Positions 1 through 58,130 of a stretch of DNA of 64,000 nucleotides are shown here, in pieces. The DNA is from a virus. Position 1 is the stretch's first letter; each line of letters starts with the position of its first letter. The stretch is taken from positions 69,091 to 133,090 of the IMG/VR virus record IMGVR_UViG_3300037493_005727. One strand, written 5' to 3'. The position numbers and the translations under genes are program-made. A model generated the notes under the pieces. The model saw only the letters and a program-made list of their open reading frames with translations. It did not search any database and was not told the DNA's origin.

Positions 1-220
1 GGCGCGCGTTGGGAGTGATCGTCTTGGCGGCTGAAGGGTCCACCAGGATTCGACCTAGACCTTTGTCCATCTCACGCTGTACCGCTGGAGCGAGAAGGGC
101 TCTGACTTCCTTCGGGACTATTTTTTTCTGAAACTCCTGCATCTTGGCGGCGTAGGGGCTCTTCATTTGTGCTTTGGTAGGAATAGCCATAGCCCCCATC
201 ATGCTGAGATCCTTGGGCAT
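1..220 (-). CDS. hypothetical protein, 3' end truncated by window edge
   Basis: Minus-strand ATG at 220-218 opens a reading frame that runs to position 1 with no stop (MPKDLSMMGAMAIPTKAQMKSPYAAKMQEF...). It is not in the supplied ORF track because it runs off the edge. Confidence 0.3.
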   Translation of the reverse strand, partial: MPKDLSMMGAMAIPTKAQMKSPYAAKMQEFQKKIVPKEVRALLAPAVQREMDKGLGRILVDPSAAKTITPNAR

Positions 221-325
221 GCGATCAACTTTGATACGCGGAGCTACAACCTTGTTGAGCGTCGCCAAGTCCAGCGCGAACTTCTCATACGCCGCGAACA
301 CGCCTAGACGGTAGTACCGCAAGGG

Positions 326-8879: not shown

Positions 8880-8891
8880 GAATCACCTTGG

Positions 8892-9446
8892 TTATGTGGA
8901 AATGGTGTTCGCTGAGTAAGAGACCAGCGAGATCTTCTTGTCTGTGTCCCGTAGCTTCTTCAATACTTCGAGCTCAGAGCGGGTTGTCCCCTTGTTGAGG
9001 TGGAAAGACCGCGCTACTTGAGCGAGACCGAATGCGTCGCAGATGTCATCCTGCGCAAAATCTTGCCCCCACTTCTTGAGTACTGCTTGACGCATCTGCT
9101 CTTTTTTAGCTTGACCGTGATCTGCCACGAACTGCTTCAACGACGCAGGCGGAACGATGATGAAAGGAACGGCGGCGTCGTGGAGAACGAGCTTCACCAC
9201 TGCGCCGACTTCGCCGAGCTCGAACACCCGCCCAGCGCCAACATCGTAGGCGTAGCCCTCGAGCGCGGCGTACTTGATGTCAGGCTCTGCGGCCAAGACG
9301 TCACGCAGCGCGTCGCGAATGCAGGCCAAGCGCGGCGCCCCTGTACGCTTCCCAGGGGTCACCGTCCCGGCGTACACGACCTCTTGATTCTCTGAAACTA
9401 CTGCTACCCCGGAACTGCGCAGCGACTGGTCAATTCCAAGGTACAT
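8892..9446 (-). CDS. RuvC-like Holliday junction resolvase
   Basis: MYLGIDQSLRSSGVAVV (RuvC motif I, GID-S), YAALEGYAY, and DICDAFGLAQVA (the terminal catalytic Asp region). Confidence 0.8.
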   Translation of the reverse strand: MYLGIDQSLRSSGVAVVSENQEVVYAGTVTPGKRTGAPRLACIRDALRDVLAAEPDIKYAALEGYAYDVGAGRVFELGEVGAVVKLVLHDAAVPFIIVPPASLKQFVADHGQAKKEQMRQAVLKKWGQDFAQDDICDAFGLAQVARSFHLNKGTTRSELEVLKKLRDTDKKISLVSYSANTIST

Positions 9447-28065: not shown

Positions 28066-28083
28066 CTTATTGGAGAATAAGTA

Positions 28084-28320
28084 ATGAACTTCTACCAACT
28101 TGGCGTCACAGACGCCCTCGCGAAATTCGCAGCCAGTCTTCCTCCGCGTCCCCCGCAAAAAGGCGCGCGTCCCTTCGGCGGTGCGTCGTCTGAGTCGCCG
28201 GGCGTGTCCGCGGTAGCGAAGCTGCCTACGGAGACGTCTCACTCCTCTGAGGCGCGTATCCCGGATCTAGGCCTCGACCTGCGGACGCCTTCTCGAGCGG
28301 CCAAGAAAACAACTGCGTGA
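28084..28320 (+). CDS. small hypothetical protein
   Basis: 78-aa ORF preceded by GGAGAATAAGTA. Confidence 0.4.
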   Translation: MNFYQLGVTDALAKFAASLPPRPPQKGARPFGGASSESPGVSAVAKLPTETSHSSEARIPDLGLDLRTPSRAAKKTTA

Positions 28321-45014: not shown

Positions 45015-46745
45015 ATGGCTGACACCCCGAACAACGATGCGATGTCGGCCTTTGACAGAGCCGCCTCCCACCCGAACCCCGCCTTTGACTTTCTCACCGG
45101 ATTCGTTCCGAGGAAGCTCAAAGATCTTTTCAAATGGTGCGAGTACCTGCTGTACAACAGCGCCCACGTCTACGCCGCTCTGCGGAAGTTCGGTGAACTC
45201 GTAGTTACGGACATCGAGTACGGCACTTCCAACGAGGCGCTGCGTCGGAACTACCGACGTCTCTTCGAGAAGACACTAAAGATCAAGAGCGCCCTGTTGA
45301 TGGCCTCCCTAGACAAGCACGTCTACGGAAACCACTTCACGTCGATCTACAAGCCGTTCGTCCGAAGCCTCAAGTGTCCGAAGTGTCAGACGCTTACTTC
45401 GATCAACCACACCGACTACAAGTTCGAGTTGAAGCGTCTCTCTTTCACCTACTTCTGTACGCGCTGCAAGATAGAGGTGAAAGGCGCCGTCGTTGACCGG
45501 AAGATCCTCGCCGCCAGCAAGGTTCACATCATCCGCTGGGACCCCAAGCTGATGGACATCGACTACAACCCGATCACAGGCCAGTCGGTGTACTACTACA
45601 ACATTCCGCAGGACATCAAAGACCAGGTGAAGTCGGGGTCGAAGCACCTCATCAACTCCATGCCGATGGAGTTCCTCGAGAACATCCGGGACAACAAGAC
45701 GTTCCGCTTCGAGAAGGACGCACTGTTCCACATCAAGGTGCCGAGTCCCTCAGGCATCGACCAGCAGTGGGGCTTTCCTCCTCTCGCTTCGACCATCAAG
45801 CTGTTCCTCTACACCTTGGTCCTCCGCAAGGCGAACGAAGCCATCGCACTCGAGCACGTCGTGCCCATGCGCATCCTGCACCCGGCTCAGAACGGCCAGC
45901 AGGACTTCACGCAGATGATTTCTCTCGCCCGCTGGCAGGACGAGATGAAGACGAACATCCGGCGGTGGCGCCGTGACCCGCTACACATCATGATGGCCCC
46001 CGTTGCCCTCGGTGTGTCGAACCTGGGTGGCGACGGTCGAGCGATGCTCACCATCGGCGAGCTCCAGGAAGCAGAGAAGTCCATCATGGCTGCCCTCGGC
46101 ATCCCGCAGGAGTTCCTGTACGGCGGCCTCACTAAGGCAGGCATGGAGGCCACGCTTCGTCTGATTCAGAACCAGACGCAGGGCCACGCCGACGACATGA
46201 ACGACCTGCTCCAGTGGTACGCTGACCAGCTGGCGCGCTTCCTTGGATGGGAGAAGGTCGAGACCAAGCTCACGCAGCTCAAGATGGTGGACGACACCGA
46301 GTCGAAGCAGATGCTCATCAACATGGCGACGGGACAGGCAGGCCAGCAGTACGTCTCGATGACTACGGTGATGGAGAAGCTCGACATCGACCTCGACGAG
46401 GAACGCGAGAAGCGTCTGCAAGAGACTCTCGACGAGACTCGCCACCAGATGCGCGTGCAGAACGAGGTCAAGAAGCTCCAGAACAACCTGGCGCAGCAGG
46501 TCCAGAACCAAGCCAACATGGCTTCCGGTCTCAACTACGACCAGCAGGCAGTCATCGGCCAGGCAGACCAGATCGTGCAGCAGCTCATGGGCCTGGACCC
46601 TGGTTCGCGGCGTTCCCAAATGCACAGCCTCCAAGCCGAGGACGCCGTGATGTACGCAGTCGTCGTGCAGCGGCTCGAGGACATGCAGAACCAACAGGGC
46701 GCACAGGCGAAGGCACAAGCCAACGGCGCTCAGCCCCCGATGTAA
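45015..46745 (+). CDS. putative portal (head-tail connector) protein
   Basis: 576 aa. First gene of the rightward structural block. The Gln/Met-rich C-terminal tail resembles podovirus portal C-termini. Assignment is by architecture and position only. Confidence 0.4.
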   Translation: MADTPNNDAMSAFDRAASHPNPAFDFLTGFVPRKLKDLFKWCEYLLYNSAHVYAALRKFGELVVTDIEYGTSNEALRRNYRRLFEKTLKIKSALLMASLDKHVYGNHFTSIYKPFVRSLKCPKCQTLTSINHTDYKFELKRLSFTYFCTRCKIEVKGAVVDRKILAASKVHIIRWDPKLMDIDYNPITGQSVYYYNIPQDIKDQVKSGSKHLINSMPMEFLENIRDNKTFRFEKDALFHIKVPSPSGIDQQWGFPPLASTIKLFLYTLVLRKANEAIALEHVVPMRILHPAQNGQQDFTQMISLARWQDEMKTNIRRWRRDPLHIMMAPVALGVSNLGGDGRAMLTIGELQEAEKSIMAALGIPQEFLYGGLTKAGMEATLRLIQNQTQGHADDMNDLLQWYADQLARFLGWEKVETKLTQLKMVDDTESKQMLINMATGQAGQQYVSMTTVMEKLDIDLDEEREKRLQETLDETRHQMRVQNEVKKLQNNLAQQVQNQANMASGLNYDQQAVIGQADQIVQQLMGLDPGSRRSQMHSLQAEDAVMYAVVVQRLEDMQNQQGAQAKAQANGAQPPM

Positions 46746-46754
46746 GGATCCCGA

Positions 46755-47255
46755 ATGCCTCCTCCGAAATCAGACGCCGGGTCCGACTTCGCGTCGGTCC
46801 TCAATGCTGCGATGCAGATCCCTGAGGGGTTCGAGACCAAGGGGACAGACCTTCCTGATGGTTTCCCTCTTCCTCGACAGGGGTCCCACCGGACCGTAGA
46901 CACCACTGACGAGGGGATCCCCGGAGTCACGGCGTTCGACTTCAAGATTCACCGCAAGGTCTTTACTATCTTCCGTCCGTGGGACAACTGTGCCCGCTGC
47001 GGGCAAGATATCGCGGGCGGGGCGGTAACCCTACCGGATAGTGGCGACCACGAGTGTCCGCACACCGCCCTGGACGAGTACGAGACCATCGTCAACGACA
47101 TCCTCGCGGGCAAAATGATCTTCGGATCTGAGCAGGAAATCACGCAGAAGGACGGAAGCGTTCTCGTCTCTCTTCGTTGGTACGAAAAAATTCCGTCGAA
47201 GAAAAAGAAACCGCAAGTCCGTGTGGACGGAACGGTCGAAGAGTCTGATCTCTGA
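46755..47255 (+). CDS. hypothetical protein
   Basis: 166-aa ORF. Confidence 0.45.
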   Translation: MPPPKSDAGSDFASVLNAAMQIPEGFETKGTDLPDGFPLPRQGSHRTVDTTDEGIPGVTAFDFKIHRKVFTIFRPWDNCARCGQDIAGGAVTLPDSGDHECPHTALDEYETIVNDILAGKMIFGSEQEITQKDGSVLVSLRWYEKIPSKKKKPQVRVDGTVEESDL

Positions 47256-47361: not shown

Positions 47362-48093
47362 TTAGGTGGCTGGTGCCTCTGACGCTTTCGTCAGCGCCTC
47401 AAAGGGTGGTAGCGACGGCACTTCCTTGCCGCCCCTCTTAGGTGTCTTGATCTTGTTGATCTTCGCGGCAGGGCCCGTCTTGGGAGACGCGATCTGGGGC
47501 ACCTGCTTCTGCGCCTGCTGCTGCGCCTTCCACCGAGTAACGTCTTTCTGGTGGCAGGCGTAGCACTTGCGGCGTCGGACATGCTTCTTGTACTTCTTGA
47601 GTCCCGACGCGACTTCCCGGACCGTCACGACGATCGCCTTGTCGCTTCCGCAGGGCTGGCAGAAGTACTGATACACTTCCGCAGACCCGGACAGCGTTCC
47701 GGCGTCGAACTGATCGACGATGGTCTTACGCCCCTCTGGCGTGTCCCAGCGCTCGATGTAGTCGAATGCCATTCGTCGCAGAGGAACGAGGCACTCGCAC
47801 AACGGGTACTCCGGGTGGAAGCCCAGCACCTTATCCGCAGGCACGGGGTCCTTCTTCGTACCGCAGAAGAAGCACTTCGTTCCGGCGCACCGGATCGCGG
47901 CTTCTTCGGCGTAAGCGGGAAGCCGAGACATCGGCAGCCCTGTCTTCGCCCACCTCCGCGGCTCATCCACCGCGCAGATGATTGCCTCCTTCAATTCCGG
48001 AACGGACGGTCCCGGCTTGAAGGATTCCTTCAAGACCACTTTCGTGGTCTTCTTCTTCTTCGTCACGGCCTTCTTCTTCACGGCCTTCTGCAT
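47362..48093 (-). CDS. lysine-rich zinc-finger DNA-binding-like protein
   Basis: 243 aa, poly-Lys at both ends, CFFCG...CEC...CQPCG...CYACH Cys pairs. A lone minus-strand gene between plus-strand blocks, just upstream of the RNAP gene. Confidence 0.5.
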   Translation of the reverse strand: MQKAVKKKAVTKKKKTTKVVLKESFKPGPSVPELKEAIICAVDEPRRWAKTGLPMSRLPAYAEEAAIRCAGTKCFFCGTKKDPVPADKVLGFHPEYPLCECLVPLRRMAFDYIERWDTPEGRKTIVDQFDAGTLSGSAEVYQYFCQPCGSDKAIVVTVREVASGLKKYKKHVRRRKCYACHQKDVTRWKAQQQAQKQVPQIASPKTGPAAKINKIKTPKRGGKEVPSLPPFEALTKASEAPAT

Positions 48094-48201: not shown

Positions 48202-51200
48202 ATGGCGCTGACATCCGTGCTCACCGATGCCGAGTCCCGGCGGACTCAAATCCGAGCGAAAGCGCTTGAGGCGCTCCGCGCCGCCTTTCCCTTGCCCCTT
48301 AGGGACAAGCAGATCCAAGTCTCTGATCTGCAGGTCCACCACAAAGACTACGGGCCGAACGACCAGAAGCAGGCGCTGCTCAGCGGCGGATCCCTCTTCG
48401 AGCCCGTCAAGGGGACCATCACTCTTCGAGGCGCTGACGGCAAAGAGATCGAGAAGGTAAAAGGTTTTACCTTGCTCAACCTCCCGTTCTTCACTGGGCG
48501 GCACACCTTCATCTTGGACGGCAACGAGTACAACGTCTCAAACCAGCTCCGTCTGAAGCCGGGCGTGTACACTCGACGGCGAGGAAACGAAGAGCTCGAA
48601 GCGGCCTTCAACCTTTCGAAGGGGGCTAACTTTCGGTTGTCCCTGGACCCCGCCCAAGGGCACCCGTACGTCGAGTACGGAACTACCGCCATTCCGCTTT
48701 ACTCAGTATTGCGGAAGTTGGGAGTCCCGCACGCAGACATCTCGTCGCACTGGGGATCCGATGTAGCGGGGCAGAACGAGGCTGCGTTCGCAGGGAAGCA
48801 CGACAAGCACCTCGCCAAGCTCTACGAGAAAGTGACGCATCCGTCCAAGCGCACGGCCACCAACCCTGAGACGCAACTAGAGGCAGTGCGCGCCGCTTAC
48901 GCTGCGACCGCGATGGACCCTGAGGTCAACAAGGAGACTCTGGGGCACGAGTTCTCGTCGGTCACCCCTCAGGCGCTGCTGGTTGCGTCGAAGCGCCTCC
49001 TCAACGTCTACAAGAACAACGCCCCTGTAGATGATCGTGACGCTCTGCAATTCAAGACCTATCACTCGGTCGACGACTTCATCAAAGAGCGCATCACTCT
49101 CGACGCCCGAGCCCTGGCCAGCAAGGTGAAAGGGCGGGCGACGCACAAGACCGGGCTCCGAGAAATCCTCCCGTCGTCGCCTTTCTCTGGTGGCATCCGG
49201 AGCTTCCTCACCGGCTCACAGCTGAGCTCGATTCCGACGCACATCAACCCGATGGAGGCCATTGATCACGCCGTTAGGGTTACTTCTCTGGGTGAAGGCG
49301 GCATTGCCAACGAACGGGCAATCCCCGCAGAAGCCCGAACCATCCACTCAAGCCATCTCGGTATCCTGGACCCGATTCGTACCTCAGAGTCGTTCCGTGC
49401 AGGCATCGACATCCGTACGGCATTCGGGGCTCATCGGGATGAGCGAGGGAATCTGTACACGATGGTAAAGGATGTGAAAACAGGTAAGGGGGTCATGCTC
49501 TCGGCGTCTGAGATGTCTAGCGCCGTGGTGGCATTCCCGAAGCAGAAGATGTCTGGGATGATCGCCGCGATGGACAAGGGAGAAGTCGCTCACGTCCCTG
49601 CGTCCAAGGTGACCCACGAACTCTACGACGCTGCTCAGCTCTACTCTCCCGCGACGAACCTCGTACCCTTCCTCGAGTCTGTTCAGGGGAACCGTGGAAT
49701 CATGGGCGGCAAGGTTCAGACGCAGGCTCTACCGCTCGTTCACAGAGAAGCTCCCCTCGTACAGTCGGGGGTCTCTTCATCGGACAAGAACGGACAAAGC
49801 ATCAGCTGGGAGCGGCAGCTCGCTCACCTCGCGCTCCCCGTTTCTCCCGTTGCAGGGAAGGTAGTGAAGATCGACGGGCAGTACATCTACATCGACCCGT
49901 CTGGGAAGAAGCACGCTGAGGACTTCGGGATCGAGAAGAACTCGTTCGAGAAGCGCGGCGGGGCAGTCAAACGACAGAAGACCATCAAAGGACTTTGCTT
50001 CAAGCTTGAGCTCGAGCCTGGAGACATCCGCTCTGGCGTATCCCCCGAAGGTAAGAAGTGGGAGAAGAAGATGTCCCTCGCCTACGGGCACATTCCCAAG
50101 ACGGTTGGGGATGACGGCGAGACCGTAGACATCTACTTGAAGGAAGATGGCGTCTTCGATCACGTGTACGTTGTTCGTCAGAAGAAGCGCGACGGATCAC
50201 ACGATGAAGATAAGTGCATGGTGGGGTTCGACTCGAAGGACGCCGCGAAAGACGCCTACGAGAAGCACGGACCGGAATGGGGTTACGGGTCGTTGGAAGA
50301 GTATACCTGGGATGAGTTCCAGGACGACTACCTTTCAGAGCGGCAGCGCGAGAAGGCCGCTGCTGAGAAGGATCTCGTACGCGTTCCGTATGACAGCAAC
50401 TTGCCTTTCGCGTCCAAGACCTATCTACACCACGATCTCTTAGTGAAGCCGGGGGACCACGTCACCGCTGACCAGCATCTCGCTGAGTCCAACTTCACGC
50501 GGGACGGCGCCTTTGCTCTGGGCCGCAACATGACCATCGGGTACATCCCTTACTACGGGATGAACTCGAACGACGCTGTCGTCATTTCGGAGGGCGCTGC
50601 GGACAAGCTCACGTCTGAGCACATGTACAAGGAGATCGTTGAAGTCGAGAGGGACGCAATCGTGGGGCGCGACGTCCACCAGCAGTACTACGGGCCCAAG
50701 TACACCGCGGAACAGTACCGCAAGCTCGACGCCAACGGCGTAGTACGCAAGGGCATGAAGGTGATGCCTCACGACATCCTGATCGCCGGAGTTACCAAAG
50801 GAAAACTTTCCGCGTCAGACGCCCTGCTAGGCAACCTGAAGAAGACTCTGGTTCACCCCTATCGCGAGCTCGTTCGCACCTGGGATCACGACTACGAGGG
50901 GGACGTCATCGACGTGCACGTCACAGACAAGCGCGTCGTGGTGACCGTTAGGACGAAAGAGCCGATGCGCGTCGGCGACAAGCTCACGGGACGGCACGGA
51001 AACAAGGGCGTTGTTTCCATGATCGTACCGGACCACAAGATGCTTCAGGATGAGAAGGGTAAGCCGCTCGAGGTGCTCTACACCTCAGCAGGCGTCATCT
51101 CGCGTATCAACCCGGCGCAGATTCTTGAAACGGTGGTAGCCAAGGTCGCCAAGAAGATTGGGAAGCCCATCATCGTTGAGAACTTCTCGGGGAGGGACAA

Positions 51201-53016
51201 CGTGCAGTGGGCGAAGGACTTGCTCAAAGAGCACGGGGTCAAGGACAAGGAAACGCTTTTCGACCCTGTCTCTGGGAAGAAGATCCCCGGCATTCTGGTT
51301 GGGCCGCAGTTCGTGCTCCGCTTGTTCAAAACCACGGAGACTAACTTCGCAGCCCGCGGCACGGGGGCCTACGACGTCAACCAGCAGCCCATCAAAGGCG
51401 GAGACGAGGGCGCAAAGGCCGTCGGCAAGATGGAGTTCAATGCACTGGTTGCGCACAACGCCCGTAACGTGCTGCGAGAGACAGCGACGATCAAGAGTCA
51501 GAAGAACGACGAGTTCTGGCGCTGCGTCCAGTTGGGGCTACCGCTCCCTCCGCTGAAGTCTTCGTTCGCCTACGACAAGTTCGTGGGAATGCTCCACGGG
51601 GCAGGAGTGAAAGTGGACACCCGGGGGAGTGTGAGCACTCTGTCTCCTTTGACGGACCACGACATCCTGAAGATGTCCTCCGGCGCGATTCAGAACGAGA
51701 AGCTGGTTCGGGCCAAGGATCTCGCCCCTGAGCGCGGAGGCTTGTTCGACCCGGCGGTGACGGGCGGGACCGTCGGTACCCGCTGGAGCCACATCGAGCT
51801 CGCCGAGCCCATCATCAACCCCATCTTCGCTGACCCCGCTCGCCGTTTGCTCGGGATGACGTTGAAGGAGTTCGACAAGTTTCACCACGACAATGGTGGG
51901 GCGCAGATCAAGAAAAAGCTAAACGCCATCAACGTGAGTGGGCGTATCGACGAGCTGCGGAGCTCCATCAAGAAGTTGAACGGGGTGAAGCTCGACGACG
52001 CAGTGAAGCAGCTCAAGTTCCTAGAGGCTCTGCACCGGCAGAAGCTCCAGCCTGGGGACGCCTACGTGCTGTCCAAGCTCCCAGTTCTGCCTCCGCTCAT
52101 GCGTCCGATCCTCCCAGGAAAGAGCGGGTCTGAGCTCGTCGTAGGGGATTCGAACTACCTCTACCAGAGCGCCATGCTCCACAACCGCTCACTCCAGCGG
52201 CAGGTCGACTCTCCTGTTCTCCCCCCCGATGAGCACGCCAAGCTGCGGCAGAATCTCTTCAACGCAGTGGGCGCCGTCGTCGGAACGCACGAGTCCGACA
52301 ACCCCAAGCTCTTGAAGCGCAACGTGAAGGGTCTGCTCGAGCACCTCACGGGGAAGACGACTCCGAAGAGCAGCTACTTCCAGAAGAAGATCATGAAGCG
52401 GCAGCAGGACATCTCCGGGCGCGGAACCATCGCTCCTGACGGGTCCTTGGGCATGGACGAGATCGGTCTCCCAGAAGACATGCTCTGGGGGATGTACGGG
52501 AAGTTCGTAATCGCTCGTTTGGTTCGTCGAGGCTTTGGCGCCGTCGCTGCGAAGGAGATGGTGGAGAAGAAGCACCCCGCGGCGCACGACGCGCTGATGG
52601 CCGAGCTCAAAGAACGCCCCGTGATGGTGAACCGCGCCCCCACACTGCATCGGTACGGCTTTGTTGGCGCCAACCCTGTGCCCGTGGCGGGTAAGACGAT
52701 CCGGGTGAACCCCTTCATCGAGCTCGGAATGAACGCCGACTATGACGGCGACACCTTCCAGATTCACGTCCCAGTTCTTCCTGGGGCCGTGCAAGAGGTG
52801 AAGGGGATGACTCTCTCCAATCTTCTCTTCTCTGACCGAGAGAAGGATAGCTTGATGGTCGCTCCCCGCATGGAGGCTATGCTAGGAGTTCACCTGGCTT
52901 CCAAAGCAGAAGGATCTGCCAACGGGCAGACTCACAAGTACAAAACGAAGGCGGACGCCATGGCAGCATACAAACGTGGTGAGATCACGCTCAGCTCGAA
53001 GGTAGAGGTAGGCTAA
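48202..53016 (+). CDS. fused multisubunit RNA polymerase beta subunit + N-terminal half of beta' subunit
   Basis: 1604 aa. Beta: ...SLGEGGIANERAIPAEARTIHSSHLGILDPIRTSESFRAGIDIRTA, LVPFLESVQGNRGIMGGKVQTQALPLV, MRVGDKLTGRHGNKGVVSMI, GKMEFNALVAHNARNVLRETATIKSQKND. Beta'-N: HIELAEPIINPIF, MVNRAPTLHRYGF, NADYDGDTFQIHVPV (the catalytic Mg triad). The usual N-terminal beta' zinc-finger cysteines are absent. Confidence 0.9.
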   Translation: MALTSVLTDAESRRTQIRAKALEALRAAFPLPLRDKQIQVSDLQVHHKDYGPNDQKQALLSGGSLFEPVKGTITLRGADGKEIEKVKGFTLLNLPFFTGRHTFILDGNEYNVSNQLRLKPGVYTRRRGNEELEAAFNLSKGANFRLSLDPAQGHPYVEYGTTAIPLYSVLRKLGVPHADISSHWGSDVAGQNEAAFAGKHDKHLAKLYEKVTHPSKRTATNPETQLEAVRAAYAATAMDPEVNKETLGHEFSSVTPQALLVASKRLLNVYKNNAPVDDRDALQFKTYHSVDDFIKERITLDARALASKVKGRATHKTGLREILPSSPFSGGIRSFLTGSQLSSIPTHINPMEAIDHAVRVTSLGEGGIANERAIPAEARTIHSSHLGILDPIRTSESFRAGIDIRTAFGAHRDERGNLYTMVKDVKTGKGVMLSASEMSSAVVAFPKQKMSGMIAAMDKGEVAHVPASKVTHELYDAAQLYSPATNLVPFLESVQGNRGIMGGKVQTQALPLVHREAPLVQSGVSSSDKNGQSISWERQLAHLALPVSPVAGKVVKIDGQYIYIDPSGKKHAEDFGIEKNSFEKRGGAVKRQKTIKGLCFKLELEPGDIRSGVSPEGKKWEKKMSLAYGHIPKTVGDDGETVDIYLKEDGVFDHVYVVRQKKRDGSHDEDKCMVGFDSKDAAKDAYEKHGPEWGYGSLEEYTWDEFQDDYLSERQREKAAAEKDLVRVPYDSNLPFASKTYLHHDLLVKPGDHVTADQHLAESNFTRDGAFALGRNMTIGYIPYYGMNSNDAVVISEGAADKLTSEHMYKEIVEVERDAIVGRDVHQQYYGPKYTAEQYRKLDANGVVRKGMKVMPHDILIAGVTKGKLSASDALLGNLKKTLVHPYRELVRTWDHDYEGDVIDVHVTDKRVVVTVRTKEPMRVGDKLTGRHGNKGVVSMIVPDHKMLQDEKGKPLEVLYTSAGVISRINPAQILETVVAKVAKKIGKPIIVENFSGRDNVQWAKDLLKEHGVKDKETLFDPVSGKKIPGILVGPQFVLRLFKTTETNFAARGTGAYDVNQQPIKGGDEGAKAVGKMEFNALVAHNARNVLRETATIKSQKNDEFWRCVQLGLPLPPLKSSFAYDKFVGMLHGAGVKVDTRGSVSTLSPLTDHDILKMSSGAIQNEKLVRAKDLAPERGGLFDPAVTGGTVGTRWSHIELAEPIINPIFADPARRLLGMTLKEFDKFHHDNGGAQIKKKLNAINVSGRIDELRSSIKKLNGVKLDDAVKQLKFLEALHRQKLQPGDAYVLSKLPVLPPLMRPILPGKSGSELVVGDSNYLYQSAMLHNRSLQRQVDSPVLPPDEHAKLRQNLFNAVGAVVGTHESDNPKLLKRNVKGLLEHLTGKTTPKSSYFQKKIMKRQQDISGRGTIAPDGSLGMDEIGLPEDMLWGMYGKFVIARLVRRGFGAVAAKEMVEKKHPAAHDALMAELKERPVMVNRAPTLHRYGFVGANPVPVAGKTIRVNPFIELGMNADYDGDTFQIHVPVLPGAVQEVKGMTLSNLLFSDREKDSLMVAPRMEAMLGVHLASKAEGSANGQTHKYKTKADAMAAYKRGEITLSSKVEVG

Positions 53017-53636
53017 TGGCTCGTTACAAGATCGCTGCAGGCGCTGGGTTCGATGCCGCGTACGCTGAAGCGGAACAGGCGCAGGCCCCCGAGGCTCAGC
53101 CCGCTGGGGAGGTGGAATCTGCGGTTCAGCCCCCGCAGCCCACTGCCTCTGAGGGGGTTCACCCGCTGGCCGTGTCCCCGGAGGAAGGGTTGTTCGCAGT
53201 TCCTCAGGAGAAGGTCGTCGGCCAGTGCGTGAAGCTGCTCAAGCTCAAGTACACGATGATGATGATGTACATCAACTACGGTGACCGGATCCGGGCGCAT
53301 TTCCGGGACGTCATCTACGACCACTTCAAAGAGCACGCCGACGAAGAGCGTCAGGACGCCTACCACCTGACGATGAAGATCACGGCGTTGGGCGGGGAGC
53401 CCACTCCGAAGGTGAGCACCATCCCCGACATCAACGACCTGCACCAGATGTTCATGGCTCTTCTTCAGGCGGAGAAGCAGATCATCCAGGAGCTGCGGAA
53501 CCTGTCCCTCATGGCGGGGGAGAATTTGTCACTCAAGGTCATGCTCGAGCAGATGGTCTTCACGGATCAGCAGCACGCGGACGATTTGCGTCGGATGATG
53601 TTCTGCGAAGGAGGCGGCGGTGGAACCGTTCCTTAA
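53016..53636 (+). CDS. ferritin-like four-helix-bundle protein
   Basis: FKEHADEERQDAYHL and MLEQMVFTDQQHADDL give paired E...E-x-x-H-like motifs on predicted helices. Start overlaps the RNAP stop (TAATG). Confidence 0.45.
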   Translation: MARYKIAAGAGFDAAYAEAEQAQAPEAQPAGEVESAVQPPQPTASEGVHPLAVSPEEGLFAVPQEKVVGQCVKLLKLKYTMMMMYINYGDRIRAHFRDVIYDHFKEHADEERQDAYHLTMKITALGGEPTPKVSTIPDINDLHQMFMALLQAEKQIIQELRNLSLMAGENLSLKVMLEQMVFTDQQHADDLRRMMFCEGGGGGTVP

Positions 53637-53778
53637 ACAGGCGTACGAAGAAGGCCAACGCGCCGCGGCAGAAGAGCTTGACCAAAAACTGAAGGACGCC
53701 GTCAAGAAGCGAAAGACGTCGGTGGGCTGGAAAGAGGACTCCGTAGCACCCAACCGATTGTCCAGCGTGAACAAGTAA
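53620..53778 (+). CDS. small hypothetical protein (52 aa, GTG start, below track cutoff)
   Basis: Read by hand: GTG 53620 after GAAGGAGG, VEPFLKQAYEEGQRAAAEELDQKLKDAVKKRKTSVGWKEDSVAPNRLSSVNK, stop TAA 53776-53778. Confidence 0.35.
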   Translation: MEPFLKQAYEEGQRAAAEELDQKLKDAVKKRKTSVGWKEDSVAPNRLSSVNK

Positions 53779-53791
53779 CCTAGGCTCTGCC

Positions 53792-54082
53792 ATGATGAAT
53801 CTTGCGTACCAAGAGGGGAAAGCTCGTGCGGAGGAGGATTTCGGTCTTCGCACGGCCGCTGATGCGTATCAGCGGGGTATCCCTCACGGGGATCAGCGCC
53901 TGCCTGTTGAGCGCTTCGCCAAACATCTCTCTACGATGGACCCGGAAGTCGGCCCCTTGCCGGATGAGCGTAAGAAGCGTTTTGGCAACCCGGTGCGTTG
54001 GGGCGGAGTCACCTCCCCGTATGGAACGGGCGCGCAGTCGAACGACTACTCTAACATTGGACCAGACCAGGCGGCGATATGA
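53792..54082 (+). CDS. hypothetical protein (MxxLAY family, copy 1)
   Basis: MMNLAYQEGKA.... Its N-terminus is paralogous to the next ORF (MISDLAYKSGA...). Confidence 0.45.
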   Translation: MMNLAYQEGKARAEEDFGLRTAADAYQRGIPHGDQRLPVERFAKHLSTMDPEVGPLPDERKKRFGNPVRWGGVTSPYGTGAQSNDYSNIGPDQAAI

Positions 54083-54483
54083 TCAGTGACCTTGCGTACA
54101 AATCGGGCGCCTCTGCGGCCTGGGGAACTTTCATGAAATCTTCGGGCGCCACACCACGTGCGGCCATTCACAGCTTTACGCCTAAGCCCAAACTCGGTAC
54201 CCCCGCTGGTGCGCCACTCGGCGCTGTCGGGTCCCCCGTCGCCCCAGCCCCCGCCGCAGCAGTAGCTCCTCCCGCCGCCGCCGCTCCTCCTGTCGCGCCC
54301 ATCAAGGGCGGCGCCGCCGCTCCGGCAGCAGCGCCAGCAGCGGCAGCGCCCGCAGCAGCAGCCGCGGGTGGGGGTTGGAAGGGGTTCGCACGGGACGCCG
54401 CCGTTCAGATGGCCGTCCCTATCGGGATGATGGGTCTCCAGAAAATCATGGAGCCGTCGCAAAAAGATCCGAACGCCACCTAA
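54079..54483 (+). CDS. Ala/Pro-rich hypothetical protein (MxxLAY family, copy 2)
   Basis: 134 aa with a long poly-Ala/Pro linker. ATGA overlap with the previous ORF. Confidence 0.45.
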   Translation: MISDLAYKSGASAAWGTFMKSSGATPRAAIHSFTPKPKLGTPAGAPLGAVGSPVAPAPAAAVAPPAAAAPPVAPIKGGAAAPAAAPAAAAPAAAAAGGGWKGFARDAAVQMAVPIGMMGLQKIMEPSQKDPNAT

Positions 54484-54489
54484 GGTCTT

Positions 54490-56289
54490 ATGGCGCAAAC
54501 TCTCGGCAAGTACCTTGTAAACGATCTCCTTCCCACCAAGCATCACATCACGGGGACGTTGAACAAGAAGGAGTTCCAGCAGAAGATGCTGGCACTCGCG
54601 CAGGAAGACCCCGCCGGGTACGTCGAGATCGTTTCCAAGCTGAAGTCTCTGGGTGACGACATCTCTACGCTGGAGGGCATCTCAGTAGGGTTGGACGACA
54701 TCACCCCGGCGTACAAATCCCGCGATGCCATCATGGCGCCGGGAATCGCCGCGATGAAGAACGCTGTCGGGCGTGACGCCAAAGAGAAGATCATTCTCGA
54801 CGTACAAAAGAGAATGCTCGAGCACACCAAGGTACACCCGGGGTCAATGACGGCGATGGCGCTCTCTGGGGCGCGTGGAAACATTCCCCAGCTGATGAAG
54901 ACCATCGCATCCCCAGTTGCTACGACTACGGGGAAGGGGGACATCAACCCCTGGCTCATCAGTCGGTCGTACGCCGAGGGCCTCTCCGCGGCTGACCACT
55001 GGGCCGCAGGAAACGAAGCTCGACACAACACCGTCCAGACGTACACCGCCATCGCGGAGCCTGGCGACATGTCGAAGGTCATGACCAACAATATGTACCC
55101 GATGGTCATCACCAAGGACGACTGCGGCACGCACAACGGTTTGGCGATGGACAGTCACGACGGAAACATCGTCGACCGGTACCTTTCACGGGATCAGGCC
55201 GGATACCACCGGAACGACGTCGTGACGAAAGCCGTCGCCTCCAAACTCCAGGCCAAGGTGAAGAAGGTCTACGTCCGCTCACCCATGACTTGCGACGCCA
55301 CCGACGGGATCTGCCGCAAGTGCCAGGGGCTTGATGAGCGGGGGCGCCCTCACGCGATCGGCGTCAACGTTGGCGTTCGAGCTGCTCAATCTATCTCCGA
55401 GCCTCTGACCCAAATGGCTCTCGGGGCCAAGCACGGAATGCGCGTCTTGAAGGGCGCGTCGCCCAAACTGGAAGGCATCGCTGGCATCCGTCAGCTCCTG
55501 GAAGTTCCTCAGAGCTTCATCAACAAGGCGCCTCTAGCTGAACACGCGGGTACGGTGACTAAGATCGTTCCTGCGTCCCATGGCGGAACGCACGTCTACG
55601 TGGACGCGGTGCAGCACTACGCTGGTCCTAACTTGAAAATCCTGGTAACCCCGGGACAGAAAGTCGAGGCAGGCGATGTCCTCTCAGAAGGGATCCCGAA
55701 GCCAGATGAGCTCATTCACCACAAGGGTTTTGGTGCGGGACGACAGTACCTCGTGGACACACTTCATGACATCTATTCCGGTCAAGGAATCAACGTCGAC
55801 AAGCGGCACCTTGAGCTGGTCGCCCGCGCAGACCTCAACCACGTCAAAATTCTCGAGCATTCGGATGAGCACCCTGAGCTCGTAAAGGGGGAGACGCTCC
55901 CCTATTCCACGTACCGTGATGCGGCGCGGAGTCGCAACAAGCTGCTCCCCTTGGCCCAAGCGGAAGGCGCTGTACTCGGTAAAGAGGTTCTTCACTTCAC
56001 CGTAGGTACTCGACTGTCTTCCTCCGTCATCAACACCCTTCGGGCACACGACATCAAGGAAGTTGAAGCGACGTCAACGCTCCCGAGAGTTGAGTTTCTG
56101 ATGCGCCCGATGGCGCGAAATCCTCTCCTGCATCCGGACTGGATGGCGCGACTGGCGCACCGGTACCTGAAAGACAGCCTGCTGCAGGGAGCCCGAACGG
56201 GCGCGGCATCAGACCGCCACAGCACGCACCCAGTACCCGCCTATGCTTACGGCGCTGAATTCGGGATCGGACCTGAGGGGCACTACTGA
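54490..56289 (+). CDS. RNA polymerase beta' subunit, C-terminal half
   Basis: ALSGARGNIPQLMKTI...YAEGLSAADHWAAGNEARHN...VITKDDCGTHNGL aligns with E. coli beta' GARG...FREGL...HGARKG...TEDDCGT (bridge-helix/F-loop region). The downstream trigger-loop-like G-rich segment is also present. Confidence 0.85.
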   Translation: MAQTLGKYLVNDLLPTKHHITGTLNKKEFQQKMLALAQEDPAGYVEIVSKLKSLGDDISTLEGISVGLDDITPAYKSRDAIMAPGIAAMKNAVGRDAKEKIILDVQKRMLEHTKVHPGSMTAMALSGARGNIPQLMKTIASPVATTTGKGDINPWLISRSYAEGLSAADHWAAGNEARHNTVQTYTAIAEPGDMSKVMTNNMYPMVITKDDCGTHNGLAMDSHDGNIVDRYLSRDQAGYHRNDVVTKAVASKLQAKVKKVYVRSPMTCDATDGICRKCQGLDERGRPHAIGVNVGVRAAQSISEPLTQMALGAKHGMRVLKGASPKLEGIAGIRQLLEVPQSFINKAPLAEHAGTVTKIVPASHGGTHVYVDAVQHYAGPNLKILVTPGQKVEAGDVLSEGIPKPDELIHHKGFGAGRQYLVDTLHDIYSGQGINVDKRHLELVARADLNHVKILEHSDEHPELVKGETLPYSTYRDAARSRNKLLPLAQAEGAVLGKEVLHFTVGTRLSSSVINTLRAHDIKEVEATSTLPRVEFLMRPMARNPLLHPDWMARLAHRYLKDSLLQGARTGAASDRHSTHPVPAYAYGAEFGIGPEGHY

Positions 56290-56291
56290 CC

Positions 56292-56756
56292 ATGCGCGAT
56301 CTGAGCCACAGGGCGGGCGTTACCGCGGCGCTGCGAGATTTCGCGGTGGCCAAGTACGCCGGATTCTGGGGCGATGTCGCGTCGTCCGCCCGTCACCAAG
56401 CGTTCGGGCAGCCTGGTGAAGCGCTAAAACAGATTCGCGCCGGGACTCTGTTCAACCCTGAGACGGGGCTGTATCACCACGGGCTTCCCAGATCGCTTGG
56501 AGGTCTAGCAGGCAATCTCGCTGTGCCTCTGGCGCTGACCGCGTTGTTCGCAAAGATGCATCCTGAGGGAAGCCGGGGAGAACTCATCGGCGATATGATT
56601 GGTAGGACGACGGGATCTTTGCTAGGAGCTCCTTTGTTTGGAGCTGTAGGTCAAGTAGGTGGCGGTATGTTGCTTTCGAATGTCGGTCGTGCCCTCGGGC
56701 GCCAATATGACTTGGCGTCAGCACCGCGTAATTCAGAGGTTGCGTCTGAAGAGTGA
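56292..56756 (+). CDS. Gly-rich hypothetical protein
   Basis: 154-aa ORF directly after the beta'-C stop. Confidence 0.4.
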   Translation: MRDLSHRAGVTAALRDFAVAKYAGFWGDVASSARHQAFGQPGEALKQIRAGTLFNPETGLYHHGLPRSLGGLAGNLAVPLALTALFAKMHPEGSRGELIGDMIGRTTGSLLGAPLFGAVGQVGGGMLLSNVGRALGRQYDLASAPRNSEVASEE

Positions 56757-56855: not shown

Positions 56856-58130
56856 ATGGGTCTCTTTAAGCGTGCAGCAGCCCGAGGCGTAGCACACGAA
56901 CTTGTTCGTCGCGGAGTCATCGCGTTCCCGTCGAAGCAGGCGATGGACGAGGCGGCTGACGCCGTCGCTGACGGTCCTCCTGGCGAGGCCATGCCGGAGA
57001 TGTCCCCCGAGGGCGGTCACTCCCCCGAGGAGCTCGCCACCGTTGCCAACAAGCTGATGGAGATCGCCCACGCTCTGATGGAGCAGGCGGGTGCTTCGGC
57101 TCCTGGCGCTGGCGGGATGCCTCCTGGGATGGAGCATGAAGGCGCCGCTCCTGAAGGCCCTCCCCCGTCACCCGAGGCCGCCAAGGCAGCCATGGATCTG
57201 ACCAAGACCGCCGCGGAGGCGAACTACGAATCGCTGGCAGCGTCTATCGCGGTCGAGTGCATGGAGAAGGCCGCGGCCGAGGTGAAGCAGGCCACTGGTG
57301 GCGCGCTGATTCACGGCGGCGACAAGGGCAATGACGCGGCGCAGGCTGCGACGCACGGCGAAGTGGCCGCACTCGACAAGAAGCAGCGCCCCGAGGGTGC
57401 CTACCACCACGGCGTGGGCAACACCGAGCTGGACACGATGAAGGGCCACATCGGTGACCTGAGCAAGAATCCGAAGGGTCCTGCGAACAGCCCGTCGGGC
57501 AGCAACTCTGTGAGCAGCGACGCAGGCTCAGGCAAAGCTGCAAGCCTGGACGAGCAGCTCAAGAAGATCGCCAACAAGCTGGTTGGCCTGCACGACGGTG
57601 AGGACAAGAACAAGCTCACCGACGCGGCGAAGATCGACACCCTCGCGCAGCTGGACAACAAGAACCGCCCCCAGGGGAAGTACCTGGTCGGCATGGGCAA
57701 CGCGAACTTCTCCGAGCCGCAGACTCATCGCATCGGCCATGAGCAGCCGCACCCCAACGCGCCGAAGAACAGCCCTTCGGGCACCAACTCGGTGATTCAG
57801 GCCTCGAAGACCTCTGAGGAGGACGCGTTCCTGGTGCTCTTCAAGAAGACCGCCGAGGACGTTGGCCCGTACCTCCCCGCGATGAGCGACGACGAGAAGG
57901 TCGCGCACATCTCCAAGATGATCGGCTTCGACCACGACGGACGCCAGGAGTACCTGAACGGTCTCCACAAGACCGCGGGTGGCGATGAGTCGAAGGAGAC
58001 GAAGGCGCACGAGAAGAGCGAGTCGCCCAAATACGAGAAGAAGGAAGAGAAGGGCGAGTCCAAGAAGGAGAGCGCGCTCCTCGGCAAGATCCGTGAAATC
58101 GCCGCCGCGTCTTCAGCCTCGGCGAGCTAA
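56856..58130 (+). CDS. acidic Ala-rich repeat protein (scaffolding-like)
   Basis: 424 aa. Internal repeat KKQRPEGAYHHGVGNTELDTMKGHIGDLSKNPKGPANSPSGSNSV / NKNRPQGKYLVGMGNANFSEPQTHRIGHEQPHPNAPKNSPSGTNSV. GAAGGAG RBS. Its position before a large structural gene suggests a scaffold. Confidence 0.45.
   Translation: MGLFKRAAARGVAHELVRRGVIAFPSKQAMDEAADAVADGPPGEAMPEMSPEGGHSPEELATVANKLMEIAHALMEQAGASAPGAGGMPPGMEHEGAAPEGPPPSPEAAKAAMDLTKTAAEANYESLAASIAVECMEKAAAEVKQATGGALIHGGDKGNDAAQAATHGEVAALDKKQRPEGAYHHGVGNTELDTMKGHIGDLSKNPKGPANSPSGSNSVSSDAGSGKAASLDEQLKKIANKLVGLHDGEDKNKLTDAAKIDTLAQLDNKNRPQGKYLVGMGNANFSEPQTHRIGHEQPHPNAPKNSPSGTNSVIQASKTSEEDAFLVLFKKTAEDVGPYLPAMSDDEKVAHISKMIGFDHDGRQEYLNGLHKTAGGDESKETKAHEKSESPKYEKKEEKGESKKESALLGKIREIAAASSASAS

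Follow-up and report, generated by a model that had tools for sequence, protein, structure and literature searches.

A ferritin-like gene and three small genes between the two RNA polymerase genes of an uncultured phage

Why are four small genes placed between the two halves of a phage RNA polymerase (RNAP)? This question is raised by a stretch of viral DNA of 64,000 nucleotides, referred to as the window (positions 69,091 to 133,090 of IMG/VR virus record IMGVR_UViG_3300037493_005727), which is part of the genome of an uncultured phage of approximately 190 kb, kin of Salmonella phage Arash. The four genes lie at 53016-54483 of the window. They are preceded by the gene for a fusion of RNAP beta and beta'N (beta-beta'N; 1604 aa, 48202-53016, + strand), which matches Pfam Rpb2_6 (3e-49), Rpb2_3, Rpb1_1 and Rpb1_2, and are followed by the gene for RNAP beta'C (599 aa, 54490-56289, + strand), which matches Rpb1_5 (1e-18) and Rpb1_4. 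A first-pass annotation of the sequence had identified these flanks, in agreement with the Pfam matches, and had proposed that the four products are either accessory subunits of the polymerase, like alpha or omega, or assembly or packaging factors. The analysis described here leads to a reading in which they are passengers and adaptors that may be co-packaged with a virion RNAP; this reading is preferred as a possible rather than a probable one.

Four genes under purifying selection

The four open reading frames (ORFs) are present as the first-pass annotation described them, all on the + strand and overlapping or nearly abutting. The first encodes a ferritin-like protein (53016-53636; 206 aa, ATG start, pI 5.0, PF00210), and its start codon uses the A of the RNAP stop codon (TAATG), as had been pointed out. 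An identical copy of this protein is recorded on a 190,250-bp JGI contig. The second, orf52 (53620-53778; 52 aa, pI 9.1), had been assigned a GTG start with a strong ribosome-binding site, and GAAGGAGG is indeed located 8 nt 5' of this GTG; its product consists of an N-terminal helix, termed the leader helix, and a basic tail. The third, orf96 (53792-54082; 96 aa), is the founder of the orf96-like domain described below, and its overlap with the fourth, orf134 (54079-54483; 134 aa, pI 10.1), is ATGA. The orf134 protein contains a leader helix, an internal Ala/Pro linker and a hydrophobic C-terminal motif. A simple scan of 53016-54490 reveals neither a promoter-like site nor a + strand terminator-like site.

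A degenerate-pattern scan with beta'C protein alignment yielded 80 viral contigs with 31-85% identity. The compared loci are kin of each other, and the counts given below do not represent independent events. The four ORFs keep the same order in related viral contigs and are conserved in more than 20 metagenomic phage contigs. The protein identity to the relatives is 60-88% for the ferritin-like protein, 65-76% for orf52, 62-68% for orf96 and about 34% for orf134. The dN/dS values (Nei-Gojobori) are 0.13-0.15, 0.08-0.13, 0.11-0.19 and 0.24-0.29 respectively, and that of beta'C is 0.05-0.13 for the same relatives. Because the gene order is conserved and dN/dS ranges from 0.08 to 0.29, the four ORFs are genes under purifying selection, not chance ORFs. 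An antisense ORF at 54046-54546, which is longer than orf134, was considered as the true gene in its place and rejected, because it is the + frame that shows conservation at both termini, the variable linker and the dN/dS of 0.24-0.29.

The ferritin-like protein is 88% identical to that of the relative L006 and 60-68% identical to those of L003 and L004, whereas beta'C is 72% identical to that of L006 and 85% identical to those of L003 and L004. These opposite patterns indicate a recombination breakpoint within the gap between the RNAP genes. Searched against a phage collection at the nucleotide and protein levels, the region, the ferritin gene and orf96 gave either no match or chance matches only.

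A ferritin fold with a remodelled metal site

The ferritin-like protein matches PF00210 with E=2.5e-11 (44.1 bits against a cut-off of 24.5). AlphaFold modelling, which the first-pass annotation had suggested as a check, gives a four-helix bundle for this protein (AF2, 83-sequence alignment; pLDDT 85), with helices at residues 64-93, 98-124, 142-167 and 171-199. The bundle (aa 64-199) is encoded at 53205-53612 (+) and contains a remodelled metal site made up of K78, Y85, H103, H107, E111, E153, D184 and H187. The best Foldseek matches of the model are 2qqy and mini-bacterioferritin 9qq4/5 (target-normalised TM 0.89, rmsd 1.4-1.6 Å over about 133 residues, 23% identity), and phmmer matches 2qqy and mini-bacterioferritin with E=1e-7 and 1e-5. 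The assignment of a ferritin fold is right, because Foldseek ranks 2qqy and 9qq4/5 first, and the model places the protein among the true ferritin-fold proteins, nearest to the mini-bacterioferritins. The first-pass annotation had also described two E...ExxH helices, but none of the domain helices contains ExxH. The protein has a single ExxH, EGVH at aa 46, which belongs to the disordered leader, and the helices carry E111-x-x-D114 and D184-x-x-H187 instead.

The ligands of mini-bacterioferritin are Glu16, Glu49, His52, Glu91, Glu124 and His127, with Met50 as haem ligand (PMC13168243). The equivalent residues of the window protein are K78, E111, D114, E153, D184, H187 and R112 in this order. 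Substitutions affect three of the six di-iron ligands (K78, the variable position 114 and D184); the Glu49/Glu91/Glu124/His127 half of the site is kept, and the other half is lost with Lys replacing one ligand. Among 23 distinct sequences from two subclades, positions 153 (Glu), 187 (His), 103 and 107 (both His) are invariant, and Lys at 78, Glu at 111 and Tyr at 85, the equivalent of second-sphere Tyr23, are each found in 22. Position 112, equivalent to the haem Met, is Arg in 21, position 184 is Asp in 16 and Cys in 4, and position 114 varies among D, A, G, S, T, F, Q and W. The pattern required for a ferroxidase, Glu (helix A), Glu-x-x-His (B), Glu (C) and Glu-x-x-His (D), is not present in the window protein, nor is the haem-binding Met of Bfr/mBfr (R112). 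As judged from these residues, a canonical di-iron ferroxidase centre cannot form, because Lys occupies the position of the helix-A Glu, the position of the helix-B His is unconstrained and the haem Met is lost. A conserved polar site remains, since the alternative set of K78, Y85, H103, H107, E111, E153 and H187 is retained.

The fold raises the possibility that the gene is an auxiliary metabolic or stress gene, which encodes a Dps- or bacterioferritin-type iron-sequestering or antioxidant protein made in the infected cell and is unrelated to the polymerase. Dps-like genes of other phages are interpreted in this manner (PMC6669764). The Pfam family match, the metal-binding residues at four of the six ligand positions, the retained second-sphere Tyr and the BFVD matches mentioned below are consistent with such a gene, but the loss of the ferroxidase centre is not. 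In addition, beta-beta'N is invariably followed directly by this gene, the stop codon of the one overlapping the start codon of the other, and the gene lies outside any metabolic module: in the two contigs examined for this purpose (P0074 and P0059) the homologue is directly 3' of beta-beta'N with overlapping stop and start codons, and an overlap of 4 nt or 1 nt between the two genes persists down to 50% ferritin identity. The family is also limited to this phage clade, as all 88 database homologues, which show at least 49% identity, are metagenomic and belong to it. An iron or stress gene is therefore quite improbable.

The bundle is preceded by an N-terminal region of about 60 aa, which opens with a few conserved residues (xRYKI), continues with a variable part rich in Pro and Ala, and leads into the strongly conserved motif PTASEGxHPLAVSPEEGLFAVPQE. 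In the window protein this pre-domain motif (PTASEGVHPLAVSPEEGLFAVPQE, aa 42-65, 53139-53210, +) follows the disordered Pro/Ala-rich N-terminus. Its residues A44, G47, H49, P50, L51, S54, E56, E57, G58, F60, A61 and Q64 are invariant or nearly so, and the pLDDT of the model is 84 at aa 51-60 and 55-67 at aa 1-50. The motif is limited to the subclade of the window. Two interpretations of this region were dropped: that it carries the leader helix, to which there is a weak resemblance (FDAAYAEAEQA) in the two closest sequences only, and that it is cleaved in phiKZ-type fashion (S/A/G-x-E) at ASE|G or SPE|E, a motif that is too short to be judged from sequence. The ferritin model also matches, in BFVD, parts of longer proteins of uncultured phages annotated as prohead protease, ParB/sulfiredoxin and NUDIX hydrolase (A0A6J7XDU5, A0A6J7WIS1, A0A6J7WPK9, A0A6J5LAB8_2 and A0A8S5MNG7). 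These matches are a lead rather than a test, and hint that ferritin-fold domains can belong to head-associated or polyvalent phage proteins.

A shared helix, an orf96-like domain and a variable slot

The proteins of orf52, orf96, orf134 and orf154, the last being a further leader-helix paralogue encoded just 3' of beta'C (56292-56756, +), share an amphipathic N-terminal helix with the motif Y-x2-G-x3-A-x3-F/L at residues 6-20. This motif is encoded on the + strand at 53644-53679 in orf52 (YEEGQRAAAEEL), 53807-53842 in orf96 (YQEGKARAEEDF), 54097-54132 in orf134 (YKSGASAAWGTF) and 56307-56342 in orf154 (MRDLSHRAGVTAALRDF). The first-pass annotation had regarded the N-termini of orf96 and orf134 as paralogous, and the invariant Y, G, A and F are in register in these proteins; the relationship is not confined to this pair, however, as orf52 and orf154 belong to it too. 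The invariant residues are A5, Y6, E8, G9, A13, F17 and G18 in the orf96 family, Y7, G10, A14 and F18 in the orf134 family, and A8, Y/F9, E11, G12, A16 and L/F20 in the orf52 family. Profile comparisons by hhalign among orf52, orf96 and orf134 give P=3e-4 (orf52 vs orf96), 0.012 and 0.016, with short alignments that are all in register. The N-termini of orf154 and orf134 also align in register (BLASTP E=0.027), together with a second hydrophobic block (AVP..M.P).

Translated in six frames, the window gives 128,000 codons, among which the loose motif occurs 10 times; the N-termini of orf52, orf96 and orf134 account for three of the 10. At 74 non-redundant loci, 53 coding-strand ORFs contain the motif within their first 13 residues, while 5.8 are expected from the background rate; on the opposite strand of the same loci, 6 motif-headed ORFs are found and 4.8 expected. 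The motif-headed ORFs span several families, including the ORF right after beta'C in many relatives. The Y, G, A and F/L residues would lie on one face of the helix with small residues in its middle (small-xxx-small), so that this face may be a close helix-packing surface. No cleavage-type residue is conserved after the helix, where x-E-G is found in orf52 and orf96 and K-S-G in orf134, and no protease was identified in the window. Look-alikes of the leader head small ORFs at 28081-28317 (+) (MNFYQLGVTDALAKF) and about 1-325 (-) ((L)RYYRLGVFAAYEKF); those at 28081 and about 325 are insignificant against a leader-motif HMM (E=1.4 or worse) and are not counted.

Behind the helix the small proteins differ. 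The basic tail of orf52 ends in a conserved VGWKE...P..L motif (six orthologues aligned), and the orthologue in L004 starts with ATG at the same site. In orf134 the linker (about aa 36-96, about 54184-54366) is followed by the hydrophobic C-terminal motif (about 54367-54459), and the orthologues, 106-260 aa in size, differ chiefly in linker length. The Ala/Pro tract is therefore internal and not, as had been stated, the end of the protein. None of orf52, orf96, orf134 (E<=0.1), orf154, orf424 and the downstream genes has a match in Pfam, PHROGs or NCBIfam. The AlphaFold model (AF2) of orf96 is of low confidence (pLDDT 56), with helices predicted only at residues 4-16, which correspond to the motif, and 38-47. 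Because this model consists of two short low-confidence helices, the small proteins are probably mostly disordered until they are bound.

In four relatives a gap protein with one transmembrane (TM) segment is encoded in place of orf134 (L011 10633-10974, L023 6193-6690, L024 6290-6691 and L025 6361-6741). The L011 protein (113 aa, Kyte-Doolittle 2.0) was reported to match Phage_holin_6_1 (PF09682) and is not homologous to the window proteins; those of L023, L024 and L025 resemble it in sequence, and PF09682 was scanned for in L011 only. These proteins, together with the glycine-zipper-like segments that orf154 and the third gene of many relatives contain, might suggest that orf134 and orf154 are lysis or membrane proteins (of the holin, antiholin or spanin type) that are located here by chance. 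However, the Kyte-Doolittle 19-residue maximum of orf134 is 1.2, below the threshold for a transmembrane segment, and orf134 was dropped as a membrane protein on this hydropathy. In addition, the small window proteins have no match in Pfam (PF09682 included), PHROGs or NCBIfam, a scan of ORFs around the operon turned up no endolysin, and the compositionally similar Gp213 of Arash is present in virions. It is thus highly improbable that these are lysis proteins. The orf154 protein contains Gly-rich hydrophobic segments, but its sole match to Gp213 is compositional (E=0.08), and homology of the two was dropped.

The orf96-like domain consists of helix 1 (Y..G...A...FG), helix 2 (P.ER.AK.L), an R..WG motif and a C-terminal GAAI or YGGV. 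The orf96 protein has 29 close homologues, and an orf96-like domain is encoded in the gap of 57 of the 58 relatives with at least about 33% identity in the beta-beta'N C-terminal region, most of which show 46-50% beta'C identity. It was not detected in the Arash-like group (31-36% identity). The domain occurs in several forms. The first is a stand-alone protein of about 100 aa, mostly encoded directly upstream of beta'C. The second is a protein of about 125 aa that ends with YGGV; hhalign ties it to the family of about 100 aa (P=2.9e-5, 67 columns), although jackhmmer failed to bridge the two families. In the third, it forms the C-terminal 100 residues of proteins of 490-570 aa, after a LigD primase-polymerase (PrimPol; PF21686) and a LigD 3'-phosphoesterase (PE; PF13298). 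The PrimPol-PE-orf96 fusions (L032, L033, L053, L034, L042, L073 and others; around 6670-6690) retain an internal Met at the start of the stand-alone form (..EASMTPYTRGRYAALLKLGL..), which suggests that the genes were fused recently or that translation has a second start inside the fusion. In L071 an orf96-like part is seemingly fused to a Gly/Ala-rich hydrophobic tail, as seen by eye only and undetected by searches. The orf96 profile found 21 matches among 1.84 billion representative proteins, about 75-100 aa in size except for one long repetitive protein and with no new architectures, and a search with a broad orf96 alignment added four proteins only.

This near-universal domain bears on the proposal that the genes encode accessory or assembly subunits of the RNAP, with orf96 as a small omega-like clamp that folds on the split beta' and joins beta'N and beta'C, and the ferritin-like bundle and the others as bound subunits or specificity factors. 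The translational coupling to both RNAP genes, the frequent position of the domain directly upstream of beta'C and the conservation of a protein that is predicted to be mostly disordered, as expected for a small subunit that folds on its partner, are consistent with this proposal. A precedent exists as well: the multisubunit RNAPs known from phages have neither alpha nor omega and contain unrelated extra subunits instead, such as gp68 of the phiKZ non-virion RNAP (nvRNAP). On the other side, orf96 has no similarity to RpoZ, Rpb6 or any solved chain (nothing below E=0.25 for its profile against the PDB), an RNAP of the same architecture is encoded by Arash and D69, which lack these genes, and the same helix is found on many unrelated proteins of up to 939 aa. 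The ferritin gene and beta'C also differ in recombination history, as shown above for L006 and L003/L004. The accessory-subunit half of the first-pass proposal is contradicted for the ferritin-like gene by its losses and replacements in relatives, described next, and is weakened for orf96, the only protein for which it is possible, by the promiscuity of the helix and the absence from the Arash group. As a whole it is judged unlikely, while remaining a serious contender.

The content of the gap, which is 0.6-5.7 kb long at all loci with a placeable beta-beta'N end, varies greatly. Among 67 non-redundant loci, a ferritin-like gene accompanies the orf96-like domain at 22; PrimPol and PE accompany it at 21, ligase and PE at 4, and PE at 2; the domain is alone at 8, and none of these is in the gap at 10, nine of which are the distant Arash-like group. 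A ferritin-like gene and a LigD-type enzyme are never found together (0/67). The clustering of beta'C shows that the gap states track three subclades. The ferritin-like gene is lost in the nested L023 and L024 within the subclade of the window and in five loci of the second subclade, and LigD enzymes replace it in the third. The gene is dispensable, because it has been lost in nested lineages, and its position is a variable slot that LigD-type enzymes occupy in sister clades. At long-gap loci the slot proteins consist of the leader helix followed by the phosphoesterase and an ATP-dependent ligase, and the 939-aa protein of L076 is of the type helix-PE-ligase-DUF4269-peptidase C39.

Such variability might mean that the genes have no joint function, the split site of the RNAP being a permissive landing place and the shared helix arising from local tandem duplication. 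The variable gap, the homing endonucleases and inteins in and around it, the opposite-strand genes in the gap of Arash and the mosaicism by recombination are consistent with this explanation. A permissive site does not account for the retention of the orf96-like domain in the gap down to about 33% beta-beta'N C-terminal identity and of the overlap between the ferritin-like and RNAP genes down to 50% ferritin identity, for the strong purifying selection, or for the presence of the motif outside the gap and on enzymes of one functional class, DNA-end repair. The landing-place explanation is therefore improbable. Two relatives illustrate the mobile elements. In L004, a 208-aa ORF between the ferritin-like gene and orf52 (8448-9074) has an HNH/endonuclease VII-like motif (CVDHNH...CPACN, by eye) and looks like a homing-endonuclease gene, which would mean that the gap tolerates insertions. 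In L003 (14-8509; same contig as L015), beta-beta'N is one ORF of 2831 aa with three in-frame insertions. Probably these are inteins that contain parts of homing endonucleases; the first insertion begins with Cys and ends with Asn-Thr, which is intein-like.

Link to the virion and comparison with known systems

Salmonella phage Arash and the Vibrio phages D69, D181 and D148 are the nearest cultured relatives, with 33-37% identity: beta-beta'N is 36-37% identical to Arash Gp206, and beta'C is 33-35% identical to Arash Gp216 and the D69 homologue. These phages keep the layout of portal, beta-beta'N, gap and beta'C. In the virion proteome of Arash, Gp206 (beta) ranks first and Gp216 (beta') fifth by spectral count, and Gp213, a Gly/Ala-rich, glycine-zipper-like protein encoded between the RNAP genes, is detected at 93% coverage (PMC10585845). 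The window encodes a portal-like protein of 576 aa (45015-46745, +) as the first gene of the + strand block that holds the RNAP operon. It has no match in Pfam or PHROGs, but is 30% identical to the annotated portal Gp204 of Arash (tblastn E=5e-90) and has the same placement relative to the RNAP. A portal-linked polymerase in an apparent late structural block would be useful mainly if it is carried to the next cell. In addition, an InPase domain (PF18823; aa 589-708 of beta-beta'N, 49966-50325, +, Pfam E=8.5e-31) is inserted in beta; the segment has PHROG matches to minor head, virion and DarB-like proteins and is missing from the Arash and D69 alignments. InPase domains are components of polyvalent proteins that are predicted to be packaged and injected, and possibly clear pyrophosphate for early transcription (PMC5512222). 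A pyrophosphatase-type domain built into an RNA polymerase is unusual by itself. Most likely, the split multisubunit polymerase is carried by the virion and injected along with the DNA.

The preferred reading starts from the reality of the genes, the fold of the first product and its remodelled site, the sharing of the motif, the near-universal orf96-like domain, the variable slot and the fusions; packaging, the identity of a docking partner and any activity are what it would add to them. The leader helix would serve as a shared docking element and bring changing passengers to one internal-virion partner, be it the polymerase itself, the portal or a scaffold, and the passengers would be packaged and ejected together with the polymerase. 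The orf96 protein would be the core adaptor, and orf134 and orf154, which are Gly/Ala-rich and hydrophobic, may have a role at the membrane as ejection proceeds. As one of several alternative occupants of the variable slot, the ferritin-like protein would be a non-ferroxidase passenger, with a single metal or a purely structural role, that acts in early infection and not as an iron store. The occurrence of the helix on many unrelated proteins suggests a docking tag rather than a dedicated subunit. The packaging half of the first-pass proposal fits this reading, with a coupled operon close to the portal and homologues of the polymerase, along with Gp213, in Arash virions. An adaptor docked on the polymerase would satisfy both the passenger and the subunit readings.

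Several points weigh against co-packaged passengers. The PrimPol fusions carry the helix internally, so that a free N-terminus is not required and the helix could equally be part of a domain or a tag. That ferritin and LigD genes exclude each other is partly phylogenetic and may reflect inertia. The conserved His/Glu/Lys set of the ferritin-like protein suggests a chemical function that the passenger model leaves unexplained. Detection in Arash is not stringent proof of packaging, because 116 proteins, many of them enzymes, are listed in the virion proteome (PMC10585845). Finally, the four proteins are found in no cultured relative, and Arash and the Vibrio phages have no recognisable homologues.

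A bolder form of the co-packaging reading, which is distinctly unlikely, takes the helix as the portable loading tag of an unrecognised cargo system in a large clade of uncultured phages of about 170-195 kb, in which the slot swaps cargo. The virion RNAP would be accompanied in packing and injection by any protein that carries the helix or binds to the orf96 adaptor, and the cargo of the slot would be, according to lineage, a remodelled ferritin cage or a complete LigD-type DNA-end repair kit. Such a tag would be a simple handle for loading foreign proteins into phage heads and would reveal which activities are needed in the first seconds of infection, and a ferritin-fold cargo in an HK97-type head would mean that phages have a direct counterpart of encapsulin-ferritin compartments. 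Whatever its role, the ferritin-like family, with Lys for a metal-binding Glu and an invariant His/His/Glu/Glu/His set, is a clean case of a ferritin fold used beyond iron storage. If the genes are mere hitch-hikers, the finding shrinks to a new clade-specific ferritin-like family and small ORFs.

The remaining genes of the block and of the window complete the setting. The portal-like gene is followed by orf166 (46755-47255, +) and by a 243-aa ORF without family match (47362-48093, -), which breaks the + strand block between orf166 and the polymerase; its position is occupied by minus-strand ORFs of 250-297 aa in L009, L011 and L013, and by a 142-aa plus-strand ORF in L014. Downstream of orf154, orf424 (56856-58130, +) encodes an acidic, low-complexity protein of 424 aa, which has an internal duplication (..QRPEGAYHHGVGN...NSPSGSNSV.. 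and ..NRPQGKYLVGMGN...NSPSGTNSV..) and no family match; the relatives conserve it at 70-87%, and it is possibly an internal protein or one of scaffold type. The window also codes for a large terminase, a family-A DNA polymerase, a class II ribonucleotide reductase and a VapE-like protein.

The literature searched contains no description of this ferritin-like family, the orf96-like domain, the leader helix or a slot for ferritin or LigD genes in an RNAP operon, although the ferritin fold, virion RNAPs, targeting sequences and polyvalent passengers each have precedents. Only a few phage groups are known to package a multisubunit RNA polymerase in the virion, and the selection of such polymerases and their companions for packaging has so far been explained mainly by targeting sequences of the T4 type and by MuF anchors. 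The present locus offers a short helix on unrelated proteins, a near-universal orf96-like domain and a slot that is swapped between lineages.

The internal proteins of T4 (IPI-III and Alt) bear an N-terminal capsid targeting sequence. The leader helix resembles it as a short N-terminal sequence on otherwise unrelated proteins of one phage, and would explain the co-packaging of injected passengers in the same way. Unlike the T4 sequence, to which it has no sequence similarity, it is not followed by a conserved protease site and is internal in some relatives. The portal-proximal location (the portal-like gene is 1.5 kb upstream), the InPase domain in the polymerase and the multidomain slot proteins of sister loci (L076) are shared with polyvalent proteins and MuF-anchored passengers (PMC5512222). 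Polyvalent proteins have two to fifteen effector domains, whereas the four products of the window are single-domain or disordered and no MuF was found; ferritin and LigD domains are not mentioned in the paper on polyvalent proteins (PMC5512222). The pair Gp206/Gp216 of Arash is likewise encoded as beta-beta'N and beta'C next to the portal, with the gene for a Gly/Ala-rich hydrophobic virion protein (Gp213) between the halves, but Arash, besides its 33-37% identity, lacks the InPase insert as well as any recognisable gene of the ferritin-like, orf96-like or leader-motif kind. With RNAP omega (RpoZ) and other small subunits, orf96 shares its small size, conservation, predicted disorder when alone and a gene that adjoins that of a large subunit, and a split beta' could need a latch; it differs from RpoZ in the lack of detectable homology and in that its helix is found on many non-RNAP proteins.

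The ferritin-like protein itself has the same four-helix bundle without a fifth helix as mini-bacterioferritin (Mper-mBfr, 9qq4/9qq5) and B. anthracis 2qqy of the Bfr/DpsL branch, and keeps the equivalents of Glu49, Glu91, His127 and Tyr23 (E111, E153, H187 and Y85). It differs from mini-bacterioferritin in Lys78 for Glu16, the unconstrained position of His52, Asp or Cys for Glu124 and Arg112 for Met50, and in a leader of about 60 aa with a motif of its own and a place in a phage RNAP operon. The targeting peptide of encapsulin cargo is typically C-terminal with a known consensus. The extension of the window protein is N-terminal and unrelated to it, the iron site is defective and no encapsulin gene is present, but like the cargo ferritins of encapsulins the protein combines a ferritin fold with a short terminal motif and a flexible Pro/Ala-rich linker, and it is possibly the cargo of an HK97-type shell.

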